Below, in pieces: positions 23,064 through 61,773 of a stretch of DNA of 64,000 nucleotides. The position numbers were made by a program, and so were the translations under genes. The first letter of the stretch is position 1. Each line of letters opens with the position of its first letter. The notes beneath the pieces were generated by a model. The model worked only from the letters and a program-made list of their open reading frames with translations. It had not been told where the DNA came from and searched no databases. This DNA comes from a virus. The stretch covers positions 23,127 through 87,126 of the IMG/VR virus record IMGVR_UViG_3300037587_000516; one strand, 5' to 3'.

Positions 23064-23344
23064 AAACAATAAAGCTAGAGTCAGTTTGGAGTGGGCCAGA
23101 TAATTACACCGGAATTGTTGAAAATCCATATGGTGATAAGGTTTGGTTTTTGAATGGTCTAAGACATAGAGTTGATGGACCTGCTTGTGTGTGGGATGAT
23201 GGAGATGAGTGGTGGTATTTGACTGATGAGTATATGACAGAGGAAGAGCACAGTAAAAGAACTGCTTACTTAAGAACCACACTAGGCAGACTTATACTAA
23301 AAGAACACTTTACATTAGGAGATGAAAATGCAAGTAAAGATTAA
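23060..23344 (+). CDS. HRVDGPA-repeat family protein, copy 9/15 (MKTIK-type, 1 unit)
   Basis: Variant tail RTTLGRLILKEHFTL. Confidence 0.9.
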   Translation: MKTIKLESVWSGPDNYTGIVENPYGDKVWFLNGLRHRVDGPACVWDDGDEWWYLTDEYMTEEEHSKRTAYLRTTLGRLILKEHFTLGDENASKD

Positions 23345-47633: not shown

Positions 47634-48089
47634 TTATTGCGCTTTTGTTTTGGCTGAATATTGTATAGTTCCGCCACCCAGTATTGCATCTGAGAAATAC
47701 TGAACCTGTCCGGCAGAATTGATCTCAAAGTCCATTCCTGCGTCTCCTGTGTTCTCGAAGCTGAATTCCCATGAGCTACCGTTCCATGCACCAGTCATTG
47801 TGCCAGCCATCACTGTAGAGCCTCTGAGGACGTTAAAATCGACCACAAATGATCGTACTAGGGATGTTGAGAACTTTAGTATTGAGGCCCCGACTCCTAT
47901 GTCAACTGCTGTGCTTTGGTTATCTAAGATCGTAGCAGATGTCAATGAAATGTCATTTGGCCCAGATAATGTACCTAGCAGGTCTGTGACTGCTTCGGCC
48001 CAATCTGTGCTCTCTTCGCCCCATCCAGCGGCTGTGCCTTGTACTGGGTATAAGAAGGTTGTTGAACCAATTGTTAAACTTTTACTCAT
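47634..48089 (-). CDS. virion structural protein
   Basis: ATG 48089 (MSKSLTIG) behind GAGG SD and TAACAACT motif. Confidence 0.7.
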   Translation of the reverse strand: MSKSLTIGSTTFLYPVQGTAAGWGEESTDWAEAVTDLLGTLSGPNDISLTSATILDNQSTAVDIGVGASILKFSTSLVRSFVVDFNVLRGSTVMAGTMTGAWNGSSWEFSFENTGDAGMDFEINSAGQVQYFSDAILGGGTIQYSAKTKAQ

Positions 48090-48106
48090 AATATCCTCTG
48101 ATTGCC

Positions 48107-48121
48107 TATATTTAGTTGTTA
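48107..48121 (-). promoter_or_regulatory. TAACAACT motif (candidate late promoter)
   Basis: TAACAACTAAATATA just downstream of the capsid terminator. Confidence 0.7.
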
Positions 48122-48155
48122 AATCGCATAAATTACATTCATGCATAAAACACAT

Positions 48156-48188
48156 AAAAAAAGGGAAGGAACCTAATCCTTCCCCTTT
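48156..48188 (-). terminator. intrinsic terminator after major capsid gene
   Basis: AGGGGAAGGA-TTAGGT-TCCTTCCCTT then T tract. Confidence 0.85.
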
Positions 48189-48215: not shown

Positions 48216-49463
48216 TTAGGCTACGGGCACGCTGAGGTCATCTATGACCGAATTCCGTCCAGGAGCAGTACAAAACAACGCCTGATCAGTATAAGCACGA
48301 AGCTCATATCCGTTAGAATCGTTAAGTAGTCTGAAGAACTCGCCTTCAAAGCCAGGTTGCTTGAACGTGATGTCAGATGATCCGACTCTCATGAATTCGT
48401 CCATGCAGAGAACATAGGCACTACCCGCCTTAACGTAGATAGAAGAAACTATCTTGATTGCTCCATTTTGAGAATAGAACATGATTTCTTTGTGACCAGC
48501 GGTCGCTTTAGAATCAGAATAAGAACTGTCATACATACGCTTAGCATCTTGCTCAGCCAAAAGAACGTCGAACTGAAGTGGGTTAATTAAAACCATAACT
48601 TCTTGGTCGCCAAGTCCTTTTTCAACTAAACGAGTGATTGCTCGTGTAATTACCGCAAAACTAAGAGCACGAGGTGTTCCGCCGTTTGCTGACACGTTAC
48701 CCTGCCATAGGTTGAAAGAAGAAGCAGAAATGTTAAATAGAGTTCCAGTATTACGGATGATGCTATCAACTCCGTCAAACTCATTACCATTTGCGCCCTT
48801 GTAGAAGATTACATCTCCGTCTAGAACAACACCATCAGCACCAACTGTCAAAGTGATTGATCTGTCGTCGAAACTTACAGAAGCAATCTCAAGGTTAGCA
48901 ACACGTAGAGATGTAAGATCTGATTGGTAGATATCAACTAACATAGTTTCAGCACCAGACCAGATACCAGGAGCCCAAGTAGCGTCAGTAATGTCAATTA
49001 TCTCGTCACCAGAAACGTTTCCGTCAACAGTTCCGTTTCCACGCTTTCCATAAAGCAATTGAACTTCCATTCGTCTAGCAATCGAACGCAACATGTTAGC
49101 AACAAGGTGCTTAGTTGCCTTCTCAAAAGAGGCGTTAGAGTTCAATGATCTAGAAGCGGCACCAACAGAAAGAACAGAACGAAGGATCATTTCAAATCCC
49201 TGTACTTGTGCATCTTTCATTTGACCGGCAATAGAGCTATTCAACGCAAAAGCGTCGCCATTTGGTCCACCATAAGTGATACCGTGCTCTAAACCAAGTA
49301 CAACTGGTTGATGGTAAAGATTACCCAGTGCTTTGGATTCCTTATTAAAAGGGATCATGTTATAAAGTTTTACTCCGTCAGGAATAAGATTTTCGATTTT
49401 ATCCGCATAGACTTCTTTGAACATTCCGTTCAGTGTGTCTATCGTATTTGCAGTTTGACTCAT
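48216..49463 (-). CDS. major capsid protein
   Basis: 415 aa; L.GMFKEVY start, C.APGRN end typical of this capsid class; downstream of scaffold and followed by terminator. Confidence 0.8.
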   Translation of the reverse strand: MSQTANTIDTLNGMFKEVYADKIENLIPDGVKLYNMIPFNKESKALGNLYHQPVVLGLEHGITYGGPNGDAFALNSSIAGQMKDAQVQGFEMILRSVLSVGAASRSLNSNASFEKATKHLVANMLRSIARRMEVQLLYGKRGNGTVDGNVSGDEIIDITDATWAPGIWSGAETMLVDIYQSDLTSLRVANLEIASVSFDDRSITLTVGADGVVLDGDVIFYKGANGNEFDGVDSIIRNTGTLFNISASSFNLWQGNVSANGGTPRALSFAVITRAITRLVEKGLGDQEVMVLINPLQFDVLLAEQDAKRMYDSSYSDSKATAGHKEIMFYSQNGAIKIVSSIYVKAGSAYVLCMDEFMRVGSSDITFKQPGFEGEFFRLLNDSNGYELRAYTDQALFCTAPGRNSVIDDLSVPVA

Positions 49464-49476
49464 TTAGAATCTCCTA

Positions 49477-49890
49477 TTAAAAGTCTTTAGCTTTTATTGG
49501 TAAACAGATTGCGACTTGTGCGCCAGTGATTGAATCTGTGGTTAAGTTCAGTGCAGCAGCTGCGGCGATGTTTACATCGACAGTTACTACTCGTGACCCT
49601 GCTGTTCCGCTTATAACTGCGTCTTTAATCCAAATATCGGACTCTTCTGCGGTTGCGACAACTCCAAGTGCCATGAATGTGATACCAGCTCCCCGATCTG
49701 AATCTAAAGCTACATCAGCAGCTGCTTCAAAACCTGAAAGTACGAATCCTGTAGCAGTTCCTACTACGGTTAGTCCCGGTATATCGATAGTGGAATCAGT
49801 TGCTCCATCTAATGTTACTAAAGCAGTTGTTTGGTACGTGCTTAGCTCTCTATCGTGTAATTGGGGACTTTTTACGACAACTTCTGCCAT
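49477..49890 (-). CDS. putative head decoration/structural protein
   Basis: Ala/Thr/Val-rich, co-transcribed upstream of capsid gene, AGGAG SD. Confidence 0.6.
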   Translation of the reverse strand: MAEVVVKSPQLHDRELSTYQTTALVTLDGATDSTIDIPGLTVVGTATGFVLSGFEAAADVALDSDRGAGITFMALGVVATAEESDIWIKDAVISGTAGSRVVTVDVNIAAAAALNLTTDSITGAQVAICLPIKAKDF

Positions 49891-50027
49891 AATTATTTCT
49901 CCTGTGATTAGTTAAAAATATAAAATACATTATACATCTACTACTTTTCCACAGTGCTGGTATCTCTAAATCCTAGAAGGGTATTAGAGAGCCATATTGC
50001 TTACTGACCAATAAATAGAATAATCTC

Positions 50028-50042
50028 TATATTTAGTTGTTA
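50028..50042 (-). promoter_or_regulatory. TAACAACT motif (candidate late promoter of capsid operon)
   Basis: TAACAACTAAATATA, identical to 48107 and 61634 sites. Confidence 0.7.
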
Positions 50043-50071
50043 AAACTACTTGACAAATTATAAAAAATGTG

Positions 50072-51043
50072 CTATTTAATACCATTCTTCATAAAATCTC
50101 GTAAACTTTGCTTCTTTGTTGGGGCCATAACTTCTTCCTTTTTGCCAGTATCTCTTACCTTATTCAGGTTAGCAGGCATCTTGCTAAGTCGTTGTTTTCT
50201 AAGGCGATCTGTGATTTGCTTGCCCATAAACTCTTCTAAAAACTTATCTGGCATTTGCTCCATAAACTCTCTCATTTCAGAGTGAATTTCTTTTTCAACA
50301 GTTGGCATAACATCCTTAGCTGTGGCGTTTTCAAACCCATTATCAATGGCAAACATCAGTGCATCAGCAACTCTTTTCATTACATACGGAGCCTTTGGAA
50401 GCTGAGATGTTGATGATATTGCCTCAGTAATTTCAACCTTTAGGTCACTTTCTGCCTGTTTTTGTAGTACTTGGAAGTCAGATGTTTGTTTATCTTCGTC
50501 CTGTTTCTTGAGTTTGGCCCGAAGTGCTTCAAGTTCACGACTCTGATCTTCTCTCTCGATTTGCTCTGGGCTCTTCTGAAGCTGCTCTATCTGCTGTTGG
50601 ATTCTGGCCTCAGCCATCTCATCTGGGTCCATGCCCATCTCAGCCATAACTCCCCATGGATCATCCACAAGTCTCTGTGCTTCGCTGTTGAACAACTTCT
50701 CCATTTCTGCGGACTTGTGCATAGCACTTTGTCCAGCCTCAGCCATTTGAAGTCTTCGTATAATATCAGCTTCGTTGCTAAAATCTAGCTCAACATCCTT
50801 ATCTTCGCCGTTTACTTTGATTTTGTATGTTCTTATTAGGCTTTTGATTTCTGCATCAGATGCACCAGCCTCAACAGCCTCTTCAATTACCTCAGCAACT
50901 TCGTCTATTTGGTCGGCACTTAATTCGCCGCCCTCTCCACCAGCAGCTTCTACAACTACTGCCTCTACATCACCAGAGCCAATCTCTGTTGATACTTCTT
51001 CACTTGATACTTCAGCCGCAGCTGATCCGTCTTCTGTAGACAT
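50072..51043 (-). CDS. capsid scaffolding protein
   Basis: Acidic helical protein with YKIKVNGE motif between portal and capsid. Confidence 0.75.
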   Translation of the reverse strand: MSTEDGSAAAEVSSEEVSTEIGSGDVEAVVVEAAGGEGGELSADQIDEVAEVIEEAVEAGASDAEIKSLIRTYKIKVNGEDKDVELDFSNEADIIRRLQMAEAGQSAMHKSAEMEKLFNSEAQRLVDDPWGVMAEMGMDPDEMAEARIQQQIEQLQKSPEQIEREDQSRELEALRAKLKKQDEDKQTSDFQVLQKQAESDLKVEITEAISSTSQLPKAPYVMKRVADALMFAIDNGFENATAKDVMPTVEKEIHSEMREFMEQMPDKFLEEFMGKQITDRLRKQRLSKMPANLNKVRDTGKKEEVMAPTKKQSLRDFMKNGIK

Positions 51044-51056
51044 TTTATTCTCCTGT

Positions 51057-51110
51057 CGTCCGTCTTATGATGGGACGTTAGTTAACCGCCTGATTATTCA
51101 GGTAGGTTTA
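51057..51110 (-). repeat. twin-hairpin RNA element copy A (upstream of scaffold SD)
   Basis: TAAACCTACCTGA-ATAA-TCAGGCGGTTAACTAA-CGTCCCATC-ATAA-GACGGACG then AGGAG. Confidence 0.75.
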
Positions 51111-51428
51111 AGGTCTTGCAAAATACGATAATTCAGCCTGTTCGTCTTTACTAATCGTATCTATATTATTAATAATTTTTTGTAATTGAAGCAGTCGTTG
51201 TTTGTATACATCAACCTTATCATTCAGTCTTGTAATAGTTTGTTCTTGGTTTGCGTTCTTATTTTTTAGTAAAAACAGTTCGGCAGAGTTTTCTTGTTTA
51301 AAAGTATCTAATCTCATCCGCAACGCTATTGATAATGATGCAACAAAATCATCAACATCATTCAACTCTTCTTCTTTCTGGGAAGTTTGTTTTTCAAACT
51401 CTTTTATTGTTATCTTTTCGTCTTTCAT
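51108..51428 (-). CDS. coiled-coil hypothetical protein
   Basis: GAGG SD. Confidence 0.65.
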   Translation of the reverse strand: MKDEKITIKEFEKQTSQKEEELNDVDDFVASLSIALRMRLDTFKQENSAELFLLKNKNANQEQTITRLNDKVDVYKQRLLQLQKIINNIDTISKDEQAELSYFARP

Positions 51429-51439
51429 TTATTTCCTCG

Positions 51440-51491
51440 TATCCGTCTTATGATAGGATATTAGTTAACCATCCATTATTGGGTAGGTTTA
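51440..51491 (-). repeat. twin-hairpin RNA element copy B
   Basis: TAAACCTACCCA-ATAA-TGGATGGTTAACTAA-TATCCTATC-ATAA-GACGGATA then GAGG. Confidence 0.75.
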
Positions 51492-51499
51492 TTAAATGT

Positions 51500-51694
51500 T
51501 TATTTACCTTTTCTTAATTTCTTTAGTGCATCATACCTTGCATTCTCTGCTAATTGTTCTTTAGTGGGACCACATGCAACCCCACCATCCTTAAATACGT
51601 GTCGATTTGGAGTTCCCTTTGTGCCGGTTCCGCCAACAGCTTCTCCTCCACCAATAGTTCCACCATATCTATATTTATCCTTTTTAGATGACAT
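51500..51694 (-). CDS. small Gly-rich basic protein
   Basis: TAATG overlap; YRYGGTI and FKDGGV motifs. Confidence 0.6.
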   Translation of the reverse strand: MSSKKDKYRYGGTIGGGEAVGGTGTKGTPNRHVFKDGGVACGPTKEQLAENARYDALKKLRKGK

Positions 51695-52005
51695 TAGACC
51701 CCCTTCTTATAGCTACAGTTAACGCCAGTAACCCTGTTAGAATTATCCCGGATCTCTTTACTAAAAGAAACCCCGAGTTTCTCTAACCTCGTCTTAACGT
51801 GTCGTTTTAGTACGTGAATGTTATTAACTCCTTCACCACCAGTATACTTTCTACCACTATTAAGATTCTTAATTGTGTATTCACAAGCAACAGTGTCTAA
51901 TTGTATTTGGTACTTTGCATCCGTGGATTCGCTCTTAATATCACGAACCGACTGCATAATTCCATCATTCTTTGTTTTCTGATACCGTATTCTTGACTTA
52001 GCCAC
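51694..52005 (-). CDS. basic hypothetical protein
   Basis: GTG 52005 (MAKSRIRYQKT) with GGGAG SD right after the portal stop. Confidence 0.65.
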   Translation of the reverse strand: MAKSRIRYQKTKNDGIMQSVRDIKSESTDAKYQIQLDTVACEYTIKNLNSGRKYTGGEGVNNIHVLKRHVKTRLEKLGVSFSKEIRDNSNRVTGVNCSYKKGV

Positions 52006-52006
52006 A

Positions 52007-54091
52007 TTAAACTCCCGTTTCCGTTGCTGACGTTGGTTTTCCATCTGGCGACTGAGCTGGCTGTGGTTGGCTAGGGAGAATCGCACCTTGTGTTTGCGAC
52101 ATACCTGCCTCCGGCGTTGGAGCCGACGGTACACTACCGGGACCGGCAGGACCAGCAGCATCAGGAGCAGCGTTCTCAGGGCTTATCGCAGACCCAGCAG
52201 GAGGTCCTAATGGTTGTTGACCAAGCATTGCTAGTAAGTTAGGATCAGTTTCTTGAAGTAACTTAATATGTTCTTGTATGTGCCCCAATACTCTTTCCGA
52301 AAGAACCTCATCCAATCTCAACTGGGGATCGGCTAGTACGTTACTATGTTCTTTAATGTGTAACGAGTGATTATCAGTTGCAATTGCTACCACCTTGGTT
52401 TTTCCGTCAGCAAGACTTTCGTTTTCCGACTTAATTAGTTCAACCTGACCACTAATCCCTTCGGTTAGTGACTCTAATCTACCAGTCTCCATAACTGAAA
52501 TATACTGCTCTGGAGACAGCTTGTCGCCATACATCTGTAACATTTGCTCAGCCATTTGAACTTTACCGGCAGTAGTATTAGATAAGGCGTTCCCCGCAGA
52601 AACAATAACTCTATTTACCGTGTCAAGATCGTCACCAGTAAACTCTCTCATTTCTGATCGGTTGTTCTGCCCAGCAATTGCCGCAATTCTTGGAACAGAC
52701 CCAAAATCTTTTAGCATATTAATTAAGCCGGTTCCGACATCTTCAATTAGTTGTATGTATTGTTGTTGAAGTCCCGACATAAATTCCAATGCTTGGGACT
52801 GAACTAGAGCTAATGCTGTACCAGACTTTAAGCTGGCTTCTGGATTACCACGAGCAACTGAGTTAACTCCTGAGATAGTCTCCATTACTTGCTCTAGTTG
52901 TTTCATGAAGTTAAATATTTCAGCAGGAGTTTGTGTAAGGTTTAGTGGCTCTGGCTTACCCGCTTGAGCATTTCCTTCAATTACATTCAATCCACCACCA
53001 AGTTGATTAACGTTTATGTCAACTCCGCGAGGAACCCAAATGTTTTGAACACCAAATGCATTTTGATTTGTAAGTGCTGTTGAATATAAGCTATTTACCG
53101 CATCTTGTATTGGAAGAATGTCGAACATATTAGTATAGCCATATGCCGTTCCTAAGATATCAGATGGCGTAATTCTATAGACAGGAAGATCTCTATAAGG
53201 CATTGGGGAATCCGACAATACTATATCATCATCTAGATACAAAAGATATCTTCCGTTAGGCATGGACTCTGATCGTTTGTGGTAGAATTCGTAGACAGGT
53301 ATATCTACTGTTTTATCGTAACTTGAGCCAACTAGTTTAAATTTGGACATATCGCTCTTTGTACTTAGCCCTTTTATCTCTTTAGCAAGTTCTGGGTATT
53401 TTGCTGCTACGTCAAATTTATTTTTCCAGCTTCTTGTAATTACCCAATCGAGTTCTTTCGCATCTTCTTTTGTGCTGTCAAATACAACATCAAAGACACT
53501 TAGGTTAGTGAACTTAACGTCACCTTCTCTTATTTCTGTATTAGTTTCCTCGTTGTAATCATAGACTTCACCTGCCATAGAGTTCCACTCCATTTTGATG
53601 AATCCTGATCCCATTGCAATTGCTTGCTCTGTTGCATTACGAAAATACTTCTCTAACTTCTTTTCGCGCATGTAATAATCAAGAAGTCCGTTAGCTAGTC
53701 TTGTTTGTACTAAAGACTTATAGTCTGAATTTGTAGACCTAGCACTAAAGCTAGGCCTATTGGCTGTGACCATAACCAAAATATGTTCTGCTATGTTTCT
53801 GAAGTGATTAATTGGCAAATGTGTTAATTCGCCCTGCTCACCTCCAAAGGTTATTGAATGTCCGCCGCCAATGTCGTCAAAATATGCGCCATAGTATGCC
53901 AACCAGCAACGTTTTACTTTGTCGAGATAGTTATTATTTGTTAGCGTTTGAAACCAATCGTCAGCTCGCCTTCGCAAAACTGCAACCGCTTCATCCGCAG
54001 GTTTTTGTGCAAAATATTCGTTTTCAAAGCCGACTTCATTATTAGTGCTTGCACTAGATGAAGATCCACCCCGTCCGCCTGCATATGTCAT
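52007..54091 (-). CDS. portal protein (podovirus-type)
   Basis: 694 aa after terminase; LPINHFRN, ISGVNSVARG, SGTAL motifs, Pro/Gln-rich tail. Confidence 0.85.
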   Translation of the reverse strand: MTYAGGRGGSSSSASTNNEVGFENEYFAQKPADEAVAVLRRRADDWFQTLTNNNYLDKVKRCWLAYYGAYFDDIGGGHSITFGGEQGELTHLPINHFRNIAEHILVMVTANRPSFSARSTNSDYKSLVQTRLANGLLDYYMREKKLEKYFRNATEQAIAMGSGFIKMEWNSMAGEVYDYNEETNTEIREGDVKFTNLSVFDVVFDSTKEDAKELDWVITRSWKNKFDVAAKYPELAKEIKGLSTKSDMSKFKLVGSSYDKTVDIPVYEFYHKRSESMPNGRYLLYLDDDIVLSDSPMPYRDLPVYRITPSDILGTAYGYTNMFDILPIQDAVNSLYSTALTNQNAFGVQNIWVPRGVDINVNQLGGGLNVIEGNAQAGKPEPLNLTQTPAEIFNFMKQLEQVMETISGVNSVARGNPEASLKSGTALALVQSQALEFMSGLQQQYIQLIEDVGTGLINMLKDFGSVPRIAAIAGQNNRSEMREFTGDDLDTVNRVIVSAGNALSNTTAGKVQMAEQMLQMYGDKLSPEQYISVMETGRLESLTEGISGQVELIKSENESLADGKTKVVAIATDNHSLHIKEHSNVLADPQLRLDEVLSERVLGHIQEHIKLLQETDPNLLAMLGQQPLGPPAGSAISPENAAPDAAGPAGPGSVPSAPTPEAGMSQTQGAILPSQPQPAQSPDGKPTSATETGV

Positions 54092-54102
54092 ATTACTACC
54101 TC

Positions 54103-54117
54103 TGTATTAAGTTGTTA
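54103..54117 (-). promoter_or_regulatory. TAACAACT motif (candidate late promoter) before portal
   Basis: TAACAACTTAATACA, overlapping terminase TAA stop. Confidence 0.65.
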
Positions 54118-55566
54118 ATTCTTTATATTTAAAATTTTCTTTACAACGGATGCTAGTCCGCCGCCATCTTCTTGGGCCAATTGTGATTGAAAGATATTAT
54201 CTCCCATTGCCATACCCCAGTTCTTTGGGTATGGGTTTTTAGACCTCACTAAGTTTCTGACTAAATAAATCAGGGCATCAAGGGCGTCTGCATGCCCTCC
54301 CTCAACTTTAAAGTCAGGAGTGTCTGGTAATCTAGTAAATGCTTTGTGGTTTTTATCCCACATGCAATTCTCTATATGGTATATAAGATGGACACATTTT
54401 GGATTTATTATAATTTGTTTATTTCCAACCATCATTCTCACTTGGTTTATCTGAGCCTCTTTATTGTCTTTTGCGGTTGCAATAAAAGTAAGGTTGTGTG
54501 ACACTATCAAATCGTTCATCATTATCAAATTATTATCCATAACCCTCATATAAGTAGGTTTTGCTTCATTTGTAACTTTATCATAAAAATTAAGAAGCTC
54601 TTTTTCTCTAATACCATTAGCAACTGCTTCAGTCGTCATGCCGCTTAACACTAATTCATCTTCAATTACTAAAGTGGCTTTCGCAAAGTCCCAATACGCA
54701 AATAGATAAACAGTTAAATCTTTAAACCCAACATCACCAGAAGTATATGTGTCAAAGAATCTTGGCCTCTCCCACTCTCTAACTATAGCCTCTTTGTTTT
54801 TTCCAAACTCAGGAATAACAACAGCATCATCATCGTTTACAATCTCACACATATACTCACGTTTAAATTGCGGATCATCGAACCCAGATGGGAATCGAGC
54901 AGCAATTTGCTCAATCTTAGCATCAGACATAGATGGGTTATCATATATAGTTAGCTTTAGTAGAGTCCCGGCAGCTTCTGCTGGCCTTACGAACTTTAGT
55001 ATGAAGTCATGCTGGGATGTTTTAGATGGCGTTGAGATAAGAATCACCTTGCCGTCAGTTGTATCAGTAGTTGGAGCCAGTATTGAGTTCACCACATATT
55101 CTAAGTGATCACAGAAACCAGCTTCGTCAACGATACAAAGATCCGCGCTTCCTCCTCGTAAGGCTTCGTGCGACCCATTATCTGTTCCAGCAAATTGAAT
55201 TTGAGATCCGTTTGGAAAAACGTACATCTTATCATTCTCTTTAAACTCTGGTTGCATGTCTGGAGGACAGTCTGCAATTATTGTTTTCATATTCGGCAGC
55301 ACAATTGTCTTCACCATCTTTAATCGAGGACAAATGTACTTTACAATTGCATCAGGCTTAGTCATACAAAGCTCTACCGCCTGAACTAAAAGCTCATAAG
55401 ACTTTCCTTGTCGTCGAGAAGCCAGTATTGTAATAATGTCCCGGCCATCTTTGTATATGAAGTCCCGGATTAGTTTCTGGTTATCCCGTCGTTTATAATC
55501 AAGAGCACCACGACGCCATAATTCTCGTATGGCCTGTTTGCGTTCAATGTCAACCTTTGCTCCCAT
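54115..55566 (-). CDS. terL: terminase large subunit
   Basis: ASRRQGKS Walker A, LRGGSADLCIVDEAG Walker B, ISTP, FKREYMC, SGDVG and HADALDAL nuclease motifs. Confidence 0.92.
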   Translation of the reverse strand: MGAKVDIERKQAIRELWRRGALDYKRRDNQKLIRDFIYKDGRDIITILASRRQGKSYELLVQAVELCMTKPDAIVKYICPRLKMVKTIVLPNMKTIIADCPPDMQPEFKENDKMYVFPNGSQIQFAGTDNGSHEALRGGSADLCIVDEAGFCDHLEYVVNSILAPTTDTTDGKVILISTPSKTSQHDFILKFVRPAEAAGTLLKLTIYDNPSMSDAKIEQIAARFPSGFDDPQFKREYMCEIVNDDDAVVIPEFGKNKEAIVREWERPRFFDTYTSGDVGFKDLTVYLFAYWDFAKATLVIEDELVLSGMTTEAVANGIREKELLNFYDKVTNEAKPTYMRVMDNNLIMMNDLIVSHNLTFIATAKDNKEAQINQVRMMVGNKQIIINPKCVHLIYHIENCMWDKNHKAFTRLPDTPDFKVEGGHADALDALIYLVRNLVRSKNPYPKNWGMAMGDNIFQSQLAQEDGGGLASVVKKILNIKN

Positions 55567-61505: not shown

Positions 61506-61632
61506 AGGTCTCTAGCGTTTTATACCTGCTATAACCTCTCCGAGTTACGCCCATGCCCTGAACATAACCAGTGTGGTAACCGAAATCACCATGGGGGCCG
61601 GGCATCAGCATATTCCCAAAAGTTATTCGGAT
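61496..61632 (-). ncRNA. candidate structured small RNA
   Basis: Begins right after a TAACAACT motif; folds into a long irregular hairpin with UUCG apical loop, then a second hairpin and U5. Confidence 0.55.
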
Positions 61633-61633
61633 G

Positions 61634-61648
61634 TATATTTAGTTGTTA
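61634..61648 (-). promoter_or_regulatory. TAACAACT motif (candidate late promoter)
   Basis: TAACAACTAAATATA. Confidence 0.65.
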
Positions 61649-61773
61649 GAACAGAACATTGTTGCGAATACTGCACATAGTGCAAATACAAAGACCTCTC
61701 CAGGAGCTACCGCAGCGCATATAGCAACCGCCCCCCAAATCCCAAACACCGCTATTCCTGATCCTATTGTCAT
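61639..61773 (-). CDS. small hydrophobic protein (44 aa, not in ORF track)
   Basis: GGAGGT SD; MTIGSGIAVFGIWGAVAICA... Confidence 0.55.
   Translation of the reverse strand: MTIGSGIAVFGIWGAVAICAAVAPGEVFVFALCAVFATMFCSNN

Follow-up and report, generated by a model that had tools for sequence, protein, structure and literature searches.

The window analysed here, a stretch of 64,000 nucleotides, covers positions 23127–87126 of the 87,126-bp IMG/VR virus record IMGVR_UViG_3300037587_000516, which carries direct terminal repeats and whose full sequence occurs, among public runs, in one marine sediment metagenome DNA run only, possibly the run it came from. The subject of this work is an RNA hairpin module that occurs twice in the head-gene region of this phage, each time immediately before a ribosome-binding site. 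The genes around the modules all lie on the minus strand. Large terminase (54115–55566) and portal (52007–54091) are followed by a small open reading frame (ORF) listed with 155 amino acids (51694–52161), whose listed form overlaps the portal gene, and by ORF64 (51500–51694). Then come ORF106 (51108–51428), a coiled-coil-like orphan gene between the two modules, and ORF323 (50072–51043), whose product is a putative scaffolding protein, so named only because the gene lies between portal and capsid. ORF137 (49477–49890) and the major head protein gene (48216–49463; phrog_14242, E 1.8e-17) complete the region.

Copy A of the module (51440–51491) ends 11 nt before the ATG of ORF106 (51428), and copy B (51057–51110) ends 13 nt before that of ORF323 (51043). 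Both are on the minus strand and about 52 nt long. The initial annotation had described two imperfect copies directly 5' of the two ribosome-binding sites, with AUAA loops, a common GGUUAACUAA and differences that preserve pairing (CGUCC/GGACG versus UAUCC/GGAUA, and CCUGA/UCAGG versus CCA/UGG), and each of these features is present. In copy A, hairpin A1 (51467–51489; AACC UA CC CAAUAAU GG AU GGUU) is followed by the linker AACUAA (51461–51466), which reads UUAACUAA together with the preceding UU, and by hairpin A2 (51440–51460; UAUCC UA UC AUAA GA C GGAUA). The nucleotides between A2 and the ORF106 AUG are CGAGGAAAUAA, with the Shine–Dalgarno sequence GAGGA at 51434–51438 and the ATG at 51426–51428. 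Copy B has the same order: hairpin B1 (51084–51108; AACC UA CCUGA AUAA UCAGG C GGUU), which begins on the final A of the ORF106 stop codon, the linker AACUAA (51078–51083) and hairpin B2 (51057–51077; CGUCC CA UC AUAA GA C GGACG). From there to the ORF323 AUG the sequence is ACAGGAGAAUAAA, including the Shine–Dalgarno sequence AGGAG (51050–51054) and the ATG (51041–51043). The copies are 90% identical over a 29-nt core, and a degenerate 29-mer that describes both has exactly two matches in the window (0.00 expected from 100 shuffles) and, across all 87,126 bp of the genome, likewise two, each of them on the minus strand. Apart from the two copies, the window shows no enrichment of GGTTAACTAA, TAAACCTACC or ATCATAAGACGGA, and a scan for sigma-70 promoters and terminators gave counts around the modules at shuffle level.

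A single architecture is common to all four hairpins. Within the joiner, GGUU is base-paired to the AACC upstream of it, so that hairpin 1 has an outer helix enclosing the AUAA hairpin. In general terms, the plan consists of an outer stem of 4–7 bp, UA (rarely CA), a YC...GR inner stem, a loop of 3–8 nt, a C and the returning outer stem; A2, B1 and B2 follow this form (type I). Hairpin A1 represents a second form (type II), UA CCC ... GG AU, which Infernal aligns by making the first inner pair a C.A and setting a U where type I has the 3' C. Because of this alignment, both forms can be read as a bulged U beside an A.C mismatch plus one A-U or C-G pair. ViennaRNA predicts one common two-hairpin fold for both copies. 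The fold of copy B is stable (−15.9 kcal/mol, z −4.05; 0 of 200 shuffles as good), and that of copy A alone is weak (−8.2 kcal/mol, z −1.16; 26 of 200 shuffles as good). As copy A is not clearly better than its shuffles, thermodynamics alone are insufficient to make the case.

A nucleotide search of the GenBank phage collection with the 2.2-kb region, for near and distant matches, returned nothing. At the protein level, the same collection gave nothing for the scaffold and remote matches only for the capsid, the best being 27.6% identical. Since these searches found nothing near, the phage has no cultured relative there. An exact degenerate pattern of the module had 0 matches in IMG/VR; it was too strict, and relatives were reached by protein. 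A capsid protein search of IMG/VR led to the closest relative, locus L003, whose capsid is 78% identical. Before its scaffold start (Shine–Dalgarno AAGGAG), L003 reads GAUC UA CCCA AUUA UGGG C GAUC, UAACUAU, UUCC UA CC UUCG GG C GGAA, and its helices are all altered in compensatory fashion (GAUC/GAUC, CCCA/UGGG, UUUCC/GGAAA and CC-UUCG-GG). ORF323 has 67 homologues in a large metagenomic protein collection, all of them unnamed, and 37 ORF323 homologues (alignment A1) were used to retrieve 68 IMG/VR loci. The related loci are numbered L003–L071 (n = 69), and the counts below refer to 60 non-identical loci, or to 61 genomes when the window is included. Scaffold starts were placed by tblastn with a check for a Shine–Dalgarno sequence. 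In the 100 nt upstream of these starts, most loci have one or two hairpins built on the motif plan.

A strict motif scan of the 60 loci (383,703 nt) gave 99 matches on the gene strand versus 29 on the opposite strand, and reversed-sequence controls gave 26 on both strands together. Sixty of the matches, in 47 of the 60 loci, fall within 110 nt upstream of the scaffold ATG, a zone that makes up 1.7% of the sequence. The strict scan demands pairing, and the search was therefore repeated with cores defined without the outer stem. In the scaffold-upstream zone of the 61 genomes, 62 of 78 such cores have four out of four flanking pairs; these cores carry 33 different 5' 4-mers, and slid controls gave 0. 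Elsewhere, complete flanking pairing was found for 1 of 32 cores inside the scaffold coding sequence and for 8 of 194 in upstream genes.

The pairs were also counted on gap-free length classes (alignments A7, A9 and A10) and on Infernal alignments; MAFFT alignments, both of complete modules (A3) and of the full set of hairpins (A6), were rejected as structurally inconsistent, and alignment A8 does not enter the counts. In the length classes, covariation scores are 1.00, 0.91 and 1.02 versus 0.20–0.25 in shuffled data (0 of 500 as high), with 3–5 pair types for each outer pair; the rows were pre-selected for pairing, so the percentage paired is high by construction. A covariance model, R2, built from ten hairpins, was searched against 467,808 nt, made up of 59 loci and the complete genome of this phage, window included. 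Of its 38 matches at E ≤ 10, 37 are on the gene strand; the scaffold-upstream zone accounts for 36, and the remaining two are one match after a scaffold gene and one weak antisense match. In the R2 alignment, 96.5% of cells are paired versus 68.7% after shuffling, covariation is 0.772 versus 0.206, and RNAalifold returns the same structure. In the window, R2 scores hairpins A1, B1, A2 and B2 at 19.3 (E 0.026), 16.9, 13.8 and 12.9 bits, respectively. A second model of 19 nt, R1, whose seed includes A2 (26.9 bits) and B2 (25.2 bits), gave 41 matches at E ≤ 10, among them opposite-strand matches resembling chance. It was too information-poor for hairpin 1 and was not used for counts.

The whole records of five relatives (80–86 kb) contain 7 R2 matches at E ≤ 1, of which four are scaffold-upstream, one is elsewhere (E 0.0016) and two are weak. 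From these whole-record matches, the motif is largely confined to the head module. The match elsewhere, far from that module, lies at G004:C1:66311-66333, in the record behind L047 (20.7 bits).

The initial annotation had staked the element on covariation in homologues, to be sought by a covariance-model search of related phages. The relatives keep the position with many compensatory changes, and the changes exceed the controls, which is the general mark of a conserved structured RNA. Because the hairpins are kept at the same place with such changes, a structured, strand-specific RNA signal is well supported: by comparative sequence evidence, the module is a conserved, covarying element beside ribosome-binding sites. 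What is conserved differs in part from what the annotation had emphasised. The AUAA loops are present in this phage but are not the conserved feature, given that the loops of the Shine–Dalgarno-proximal hairpin are interchangeable among relatives (AUAA, AAAA, GAAA, GCAA, UUCG, GAUA); those of hairpin 1 are usually CAAUAA-like. The most conserved feature is instead the UA/C internal loop with its flanking YC/GR pairs, set in hairpins of 4–7 outer and 2–5 inner pairs.

The usual order at the scaffold start is the upstream stop codon, hairpin 1, a short A/U-rich linker, hairpin 2, the Shine–Dalgarno sequence and the scaffold AUG. In 36 of 47 loci the upstream stop lies at most 17 nt from hairpin 1, and in 17 of 47 between −3 and +2 nt; with the stop so near, the module fills the intercistronic gap. 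At the other end, in 27 of 47 loci only 2–17 nt separate the last strict hairpin from the scaffold ATG, so that the hairpin abuts the Shine–Dalgarno sequence. In the other 20 loci it ends 34–50 nt before the ATG, and a degenerate second stem-loop can be made out by eye in the gap. The linker often reads UAACUAA or UAACUUA. The word TAACT occurs at 6.79 per kb between −70 and −1 versus a background of 1.51 per kb (4.5-fold); its occurrences concentrate at −45 to −35, and 22 of 61 loci have it. Predicted folds leave the Shine–Dalgarno sequence free apart from a 2-bp CU/AG extension.

The duplication noticed in the initial annotation is real, and it is peculiar to this phage: two modules are found in one of the 61 genomes examined, and in the other 60 the module is single-copy at a fixed position. 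ORF106, the gene between the copies, has no Pfam or PHROG family, and tblastn finds no homologue of ORF106 or of ORF64 in the 69 related loci. Most simply, ORF106 would have been inserted along with a leader copy, or by recombination between leader copies, and so carry the same control region, and the two copies would have diverged afterwards by compensatory changes. The small ORF listed at 155 amino acids has homologues in 14 of the 60 loci, and in 11 of these 14 they end 33–75 nt before the scaffold ATG, directly before the module. Similarity to these relatives starts only at residue 53, at a GTG (52005) that is preceded by GGGAG; on this basis, the true product is probably a protein of 103 residues (ORF103) that starts there. 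ORF323 has no family match in Pfam, PHROG or PDB. As to the wider genome, this phage encodes a family A DNA polymerase, and a tRNA/tmRNA scan found none.

The motif also has a third site. The annotation had placed the hairpins before a scaffold gene, and they do precede ORF323, but the scaffold label is positional only and a hairpin of the same family stands in the capsid-operon leader as well. This type II hairpin (49963–49990, minus strand) reads UCUCUAA UA CC CUUCUA GG AU UUAGAGA, followed by UACCA, and folds at −10.7 kcal/mol (z −2.40). It lies upstream of ORF137, 73 nt before its ATG; in relatives, the distance to the next start ranges from tens to more than 100 nt. A homologous hairpin is found in about 30 related loci at 1070–1350 nt after the scaffold ATG, which is the spacer to the next gene, and in many relatives an AUACCAA-like single-stranded word follows it (seen by eye). 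Lone non-Watson–Crick pairs within the Watson–Crick outer stems of this site comprise 10 G.U versus 2–3 A.C, an excess that favours sense-strand RNA, although the rows are few and related and the scaffold-site stems are almost purely Watson–Crick and hence uninformative.

Between the scaffold stop and the third hairpin lies a promoter-like motif, UUAACAACUAAAUAUAG (50027–50043, minus strand), of the form (T/C)TAACAACT(A/T)(A/T)ATATAG. Seven occurrences on the minus strand of the window (61649, 60550, 56299, 54118, 50043, 48122 and 35846) each stand before a late gene, and two further occurrences are found elsewhere in the genome. The 61 loci together contain 80 sense-strand and 8 antisense copies of TAACAACT. 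It follows the scaffold gene directly in 28 of 61 loci and lies within 200 nt upstream of the scaffold ATG in 5 of 61; in 4 of 61 it starts 76–82 nt before that ATG, and in L043, L061 and L069 it stands, by eye, directly 5' of hairpin 1. It is probably the late promoter of the clade, and it looks like a promoter of a single-subunit polymerase. Among 20 large ORFs tested, a set that is not exhaustive, no phage RNA polymerase or sigma factor was found.

Several side observations belong to this part of the genome. A strong terminator-like hairpin with 12 pairs and a T run follows the capsid gene (48159–48188, minus strand), and the motif TTAACAACTAA comes directly after it (48112–48122, minus strand). 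As both lie within or before the start of the ORF listed at 47634–48155, the true start of that ORF is probably further downstream, near 48090. A minus-strand hairpin (61609–61637; UAUA CA UCCGA AUAACUU UUGGG AA UAUG) that immediately follows the promoter-like motif at 61649 has a similar plan with a different 3' bulge. Group I intron matches occur downstream of the scaffold, in the capsid-gene region, in L007 (4505–4754; 97.3 bits, gathering score 50) and L034 (4417–4657; 43.6 bits, below that score), and the capsid frame is seemingly interrupted soon after its start in L005 and L045.

Searches of known RNA families returned no counterpart. Rfam 15 gave 0 matches at gathering thresholds in the window and L003, and 11 further related loci had no strong matches other than group I introns elsewhere. 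The sole family that matches the module at all is RF03012 (Mu-gpT-DE), which copy B resembles below threshold (21.8 bits versus a gathering score of 49; E 0.012–0.019), and copy A has no match. The likeness lies in the head-gene context and in the model ends, CCUGA ... ACGACAGGAGAAUAAAAUG, which include the Shine–Dalgarno sequence and the AUG; the middle 28 model positions are unmatched. RF03012 is also absent from the 8 matches at E ≤ 5 in the 11 related loci. Membership was rejected because the match is sub-threshold, involves the ends only and does not recur in the 11 relatives, and the match is treated as a chance resemblance of the ribosome-binding region. Literature searches on Mu-gpT-DE, P22 scaffold autoregulation and phage capsid or scaffold leader RNAs, limited to main texts, yielded no description of the motif.

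What the module does has to be judged from its form and position. An invariant asymmetric internal loop within freely varying stems and under interchangeable loops has the look of a recognition site. The position points in the same direction: 27 of 47 loci, and the window copies at 11 and 13 nt from their start codons, have a hairpin where operators of the T4 gp43/gp32 type lie. In the T4/RB69 gene 43 operator, as described in passages of PMC3014915, a phage protein represses translation by binding a hairpin about 40 nt upstream of the AUG together with sequence that extends to the ribosome-binding site, and the loop of this hairpin contains UAAC. Similarly, hairpin 1 of the present module ends 34–50 nt before the AUG, often with a CAAUAAC-type loop, and hairpin 2 reaches the Shine–Dalgarno sequence. 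The module differs in belonging to another sequence family with no homology shown, in having two hairpins that each carry a UA/C internal loop, and in preceding a scaffold-position gene rather than a polymerase gene. We favour, tentatively and at somewhat less than even confidence, the view that the module is a protein-bound operator adjoining the Shine–Dalgarno sequence and controlling the output of head proteins. The internal loop would be the recognition surface of a putative protein from among the head proteins (free scaffold, for instance), the other phage proteins or the host factors. Bound to hairpin 2 at the Shine–Dalgarno sequence and to hairpin 1 some 35–50 nt upstream of the AUG, this protein would block or modulate 30S binding and so set the output of the scaffold and of ORF106, and, by way of the third copy, the capsid operon would come under its control as well.

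A narrower version, in which the hairpin is the operator by which a head-assembly protein, likeliest unassembled scaffold, represses the scaffold gene and through the third copy the capsid operon, is decidedly more doubtful. Autoregulation of the P22 scaffold has been known for decades, and to our knowledge no RNA operator has been defined for it. The parallel with P22 gp8 lies in the scaffold-position gene and in an output that, in P22, is thought to be set post-transcriptionally. It ends where ORF323 shows no detectable similarity to any named scaffold family, and binding of scaffold to the hairpins would be hypothetical here. For P22 itself, a preprint describes the scaffold N-terminus as 'implicated in translational autoregulation' (bioRxiv 10.1101/2022.12.13.520362).

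Several points weigh against an operator. No binder was identified. The one conserved neighbour tested, the ORF103/ORF155-like protein, is limited to 14 of 60 loci. In the consensus of alignment A1, the N-terminus of the scaffold is strongly acidic, unlike an RNA-binding surface. The predicted folds do not sequester the Shine–Dalgarno sequence beyond the short extension mentioned above. At the third site, the distance to the next start codon is too great for ribosome occlusion, and a single operator mechanism therefore leaves sites unexplained. Part of the pairing statistics comes from length classes selected for pairing, and no RNA run is among the public runs that contain the phage sequence. 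The ORF155/ORF103 protein was considered as a candidate binder and set aside, as it gave no lead in a protein atlas and is confined to those 14 loci.

The main competitor is a role in mRNA processing or stability, which we regard as possible, if on the unlikely side. An endoribonuclease (a host RNase E/Y-like enzyme or one of the phage) would cut in the linker or 5' of hairpin 1. The upstream mRNA would then be capped at its 3' end by hairpin 1, the scaffold mRNA would be protected at its 5' end by hairpin 2, and the abundant head-gene messages would gain a stability independent of that of their neighbours. The intercistronic position of the module, with the stop at most 17 nt away in 36 of 47 loci, the A/U-rich single-stranded linker with stems on both sides and the presence of hairpins on both sides of the scaffold gene all agree with this, and where, by eye, a promoter-like motif stands directly before hairpin 1 (L043, L061 and L069, among the 4 of 61 loci with the motif 76–82 nt before the scaffold ATG), the hairpin would be at the 5' end of the primary transcript. 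Yet hairpins that merely protect ends need no conserved internal loop, and the UA/C loop is the most conserved part of the motif; moreover, the third-site hairpin lies 30–100 nt downstream of the promoter-like motif and hence not at a 5' end. T7-type RNase III sites are long, irregular helices that span about two helical turns and contain an internal loop, and at 6–12 bp in total the stems are too short for a classical substrate of this enzyme. T4 gene 32 mRNA provides a precedent for RNase E processing combined with translational control, according to passages of PMC3014915. The interpretation in the initial annotation is thus partly supported: the comparative data speak for a structured RNA element, and its proposed use in tuning head stoichiometry, as an operator or a processing signal, is an inference.

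It is improbable that the module acts passively, as a translation enhancer or insulator whose hairpins clamp an epsilon-like UUAACUAA and the Shine–Dalgarno sequence in a single-stranded state, without a specific binder, and thereby ensure high, context-independent translation of abundant head proteins. This idea draws on the T7 gene 10 epsilon enhancer, in passages of PMC9590205 an A/U-rich word, UUAACUUUAA, upstream of a strong capsid-gene Shine–Dalgarno sequence, which the window linkers resemble. The enrichment of TAACT at −45 to −35, the Shine–Dalgarno sequence left unpaired in all folds and the UUAACU-type words seen by eye before the Shine–Dalgarno sequence of the next gene (for example in L003, L016 and at 49905–49915 of the window) speak for it. 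However, the linker word is found in only 22–25 of 61 loci versus hairpins in at least 47 of 60, and unlike the T7 word it is framed by two conserved hairpins. The invariant bulged U, the A.C mismatch, the CC/GG pairs and the distant third site would find no explanation, and the epsilon effect is described for E. coli, which may not be the host of this phage.

Antitermination and DNA-level roles fit poorly. Small hairpin modules that occur more than once per genome, in copies differing by compensatory changes, are known from HK022 putL/putR and lambda nut, which lie downstream of early promoters and act on RNA polymerase. Nascent hairpins of the present module, alone or with a phage factor, could by analogy make RNA polymerase read through late-operon terminators, and the two-hairpin plan with two matched copies in the genome does recall putL and putR. 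In 28 of 61 loci a promoter-like motif precedes the third-site hairpin, and the strong hairpin after the capsid gene (48159–48188) would offer a terminator. We nevertheless hold such a role to be very improbable: a promoter-like motif lies within 200 nt upstream of the scaffold module in only 5 of 61 loci, the tight, conserved abutment to the Shine–Dalgarno sequence would be meaningless for antitermination, and read-through is not obviously needed, because a new promoter-like motif at 48122 follows the post-capsid terminator. A lambda nut site is defined by a 5-bp stem, a GNRA-like pentaloop and a boxA consensus; the loops here have 3–8 nt and variable sequence and are generally no GNRA pentaloops. 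Least probable of all is an element acting as DNA, in the form of cruciform or single-stranded hairpins or of recombination hot spots that border a mobile gene cassette, for which the promoter-stem-loop cassettes of T4-type phages offer a comparison. Near-identical modules do bracket the orphan ORF106, the footprint expected of recombination between repeats, but the motif is asymmetric and bound to the gene strand (37 of 38 R2 matches; 99 versus 29 strict matches), always lies in untranslated mRNA beside ribosome-binding sites and is single-copy at a fixed position in 60 of 61 genomes. The G.U excess at the third site (10 versus 2–3 A.C, in few and related rows) likewise fits sense-strand RNA.

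In light of its conservation and of the family searches, the hairpin is an uncatalogued cis-acting RNA motif of head-gene messages in a clade of uncultured marine phages, and it adds a family to the small set of cis-regulatory RNAs of double-stranded DNA phages. The proportion of scaffold to coat protein is fixed in phage heads, and how it is set post-transcriptionally is poorly understood even in model phages. The motif offers a concrete RNA target in dozens of uncultured marine phages that can be tested in vitro without phage culture, and the hairpin module may serve as a portable insulator or operator part. In ORF106, an orphan gene is seen acquiring a copy of an existing regulatory leader. 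If the module is indeed the operator through which the scaffold represses its own synthesis, it would be the first sequence-defined RNA target for scaffold autoregulation, with a code common to a clade of marine phages, and the duplication before ORF106 would show a newly acquired gene wired into that circuit.

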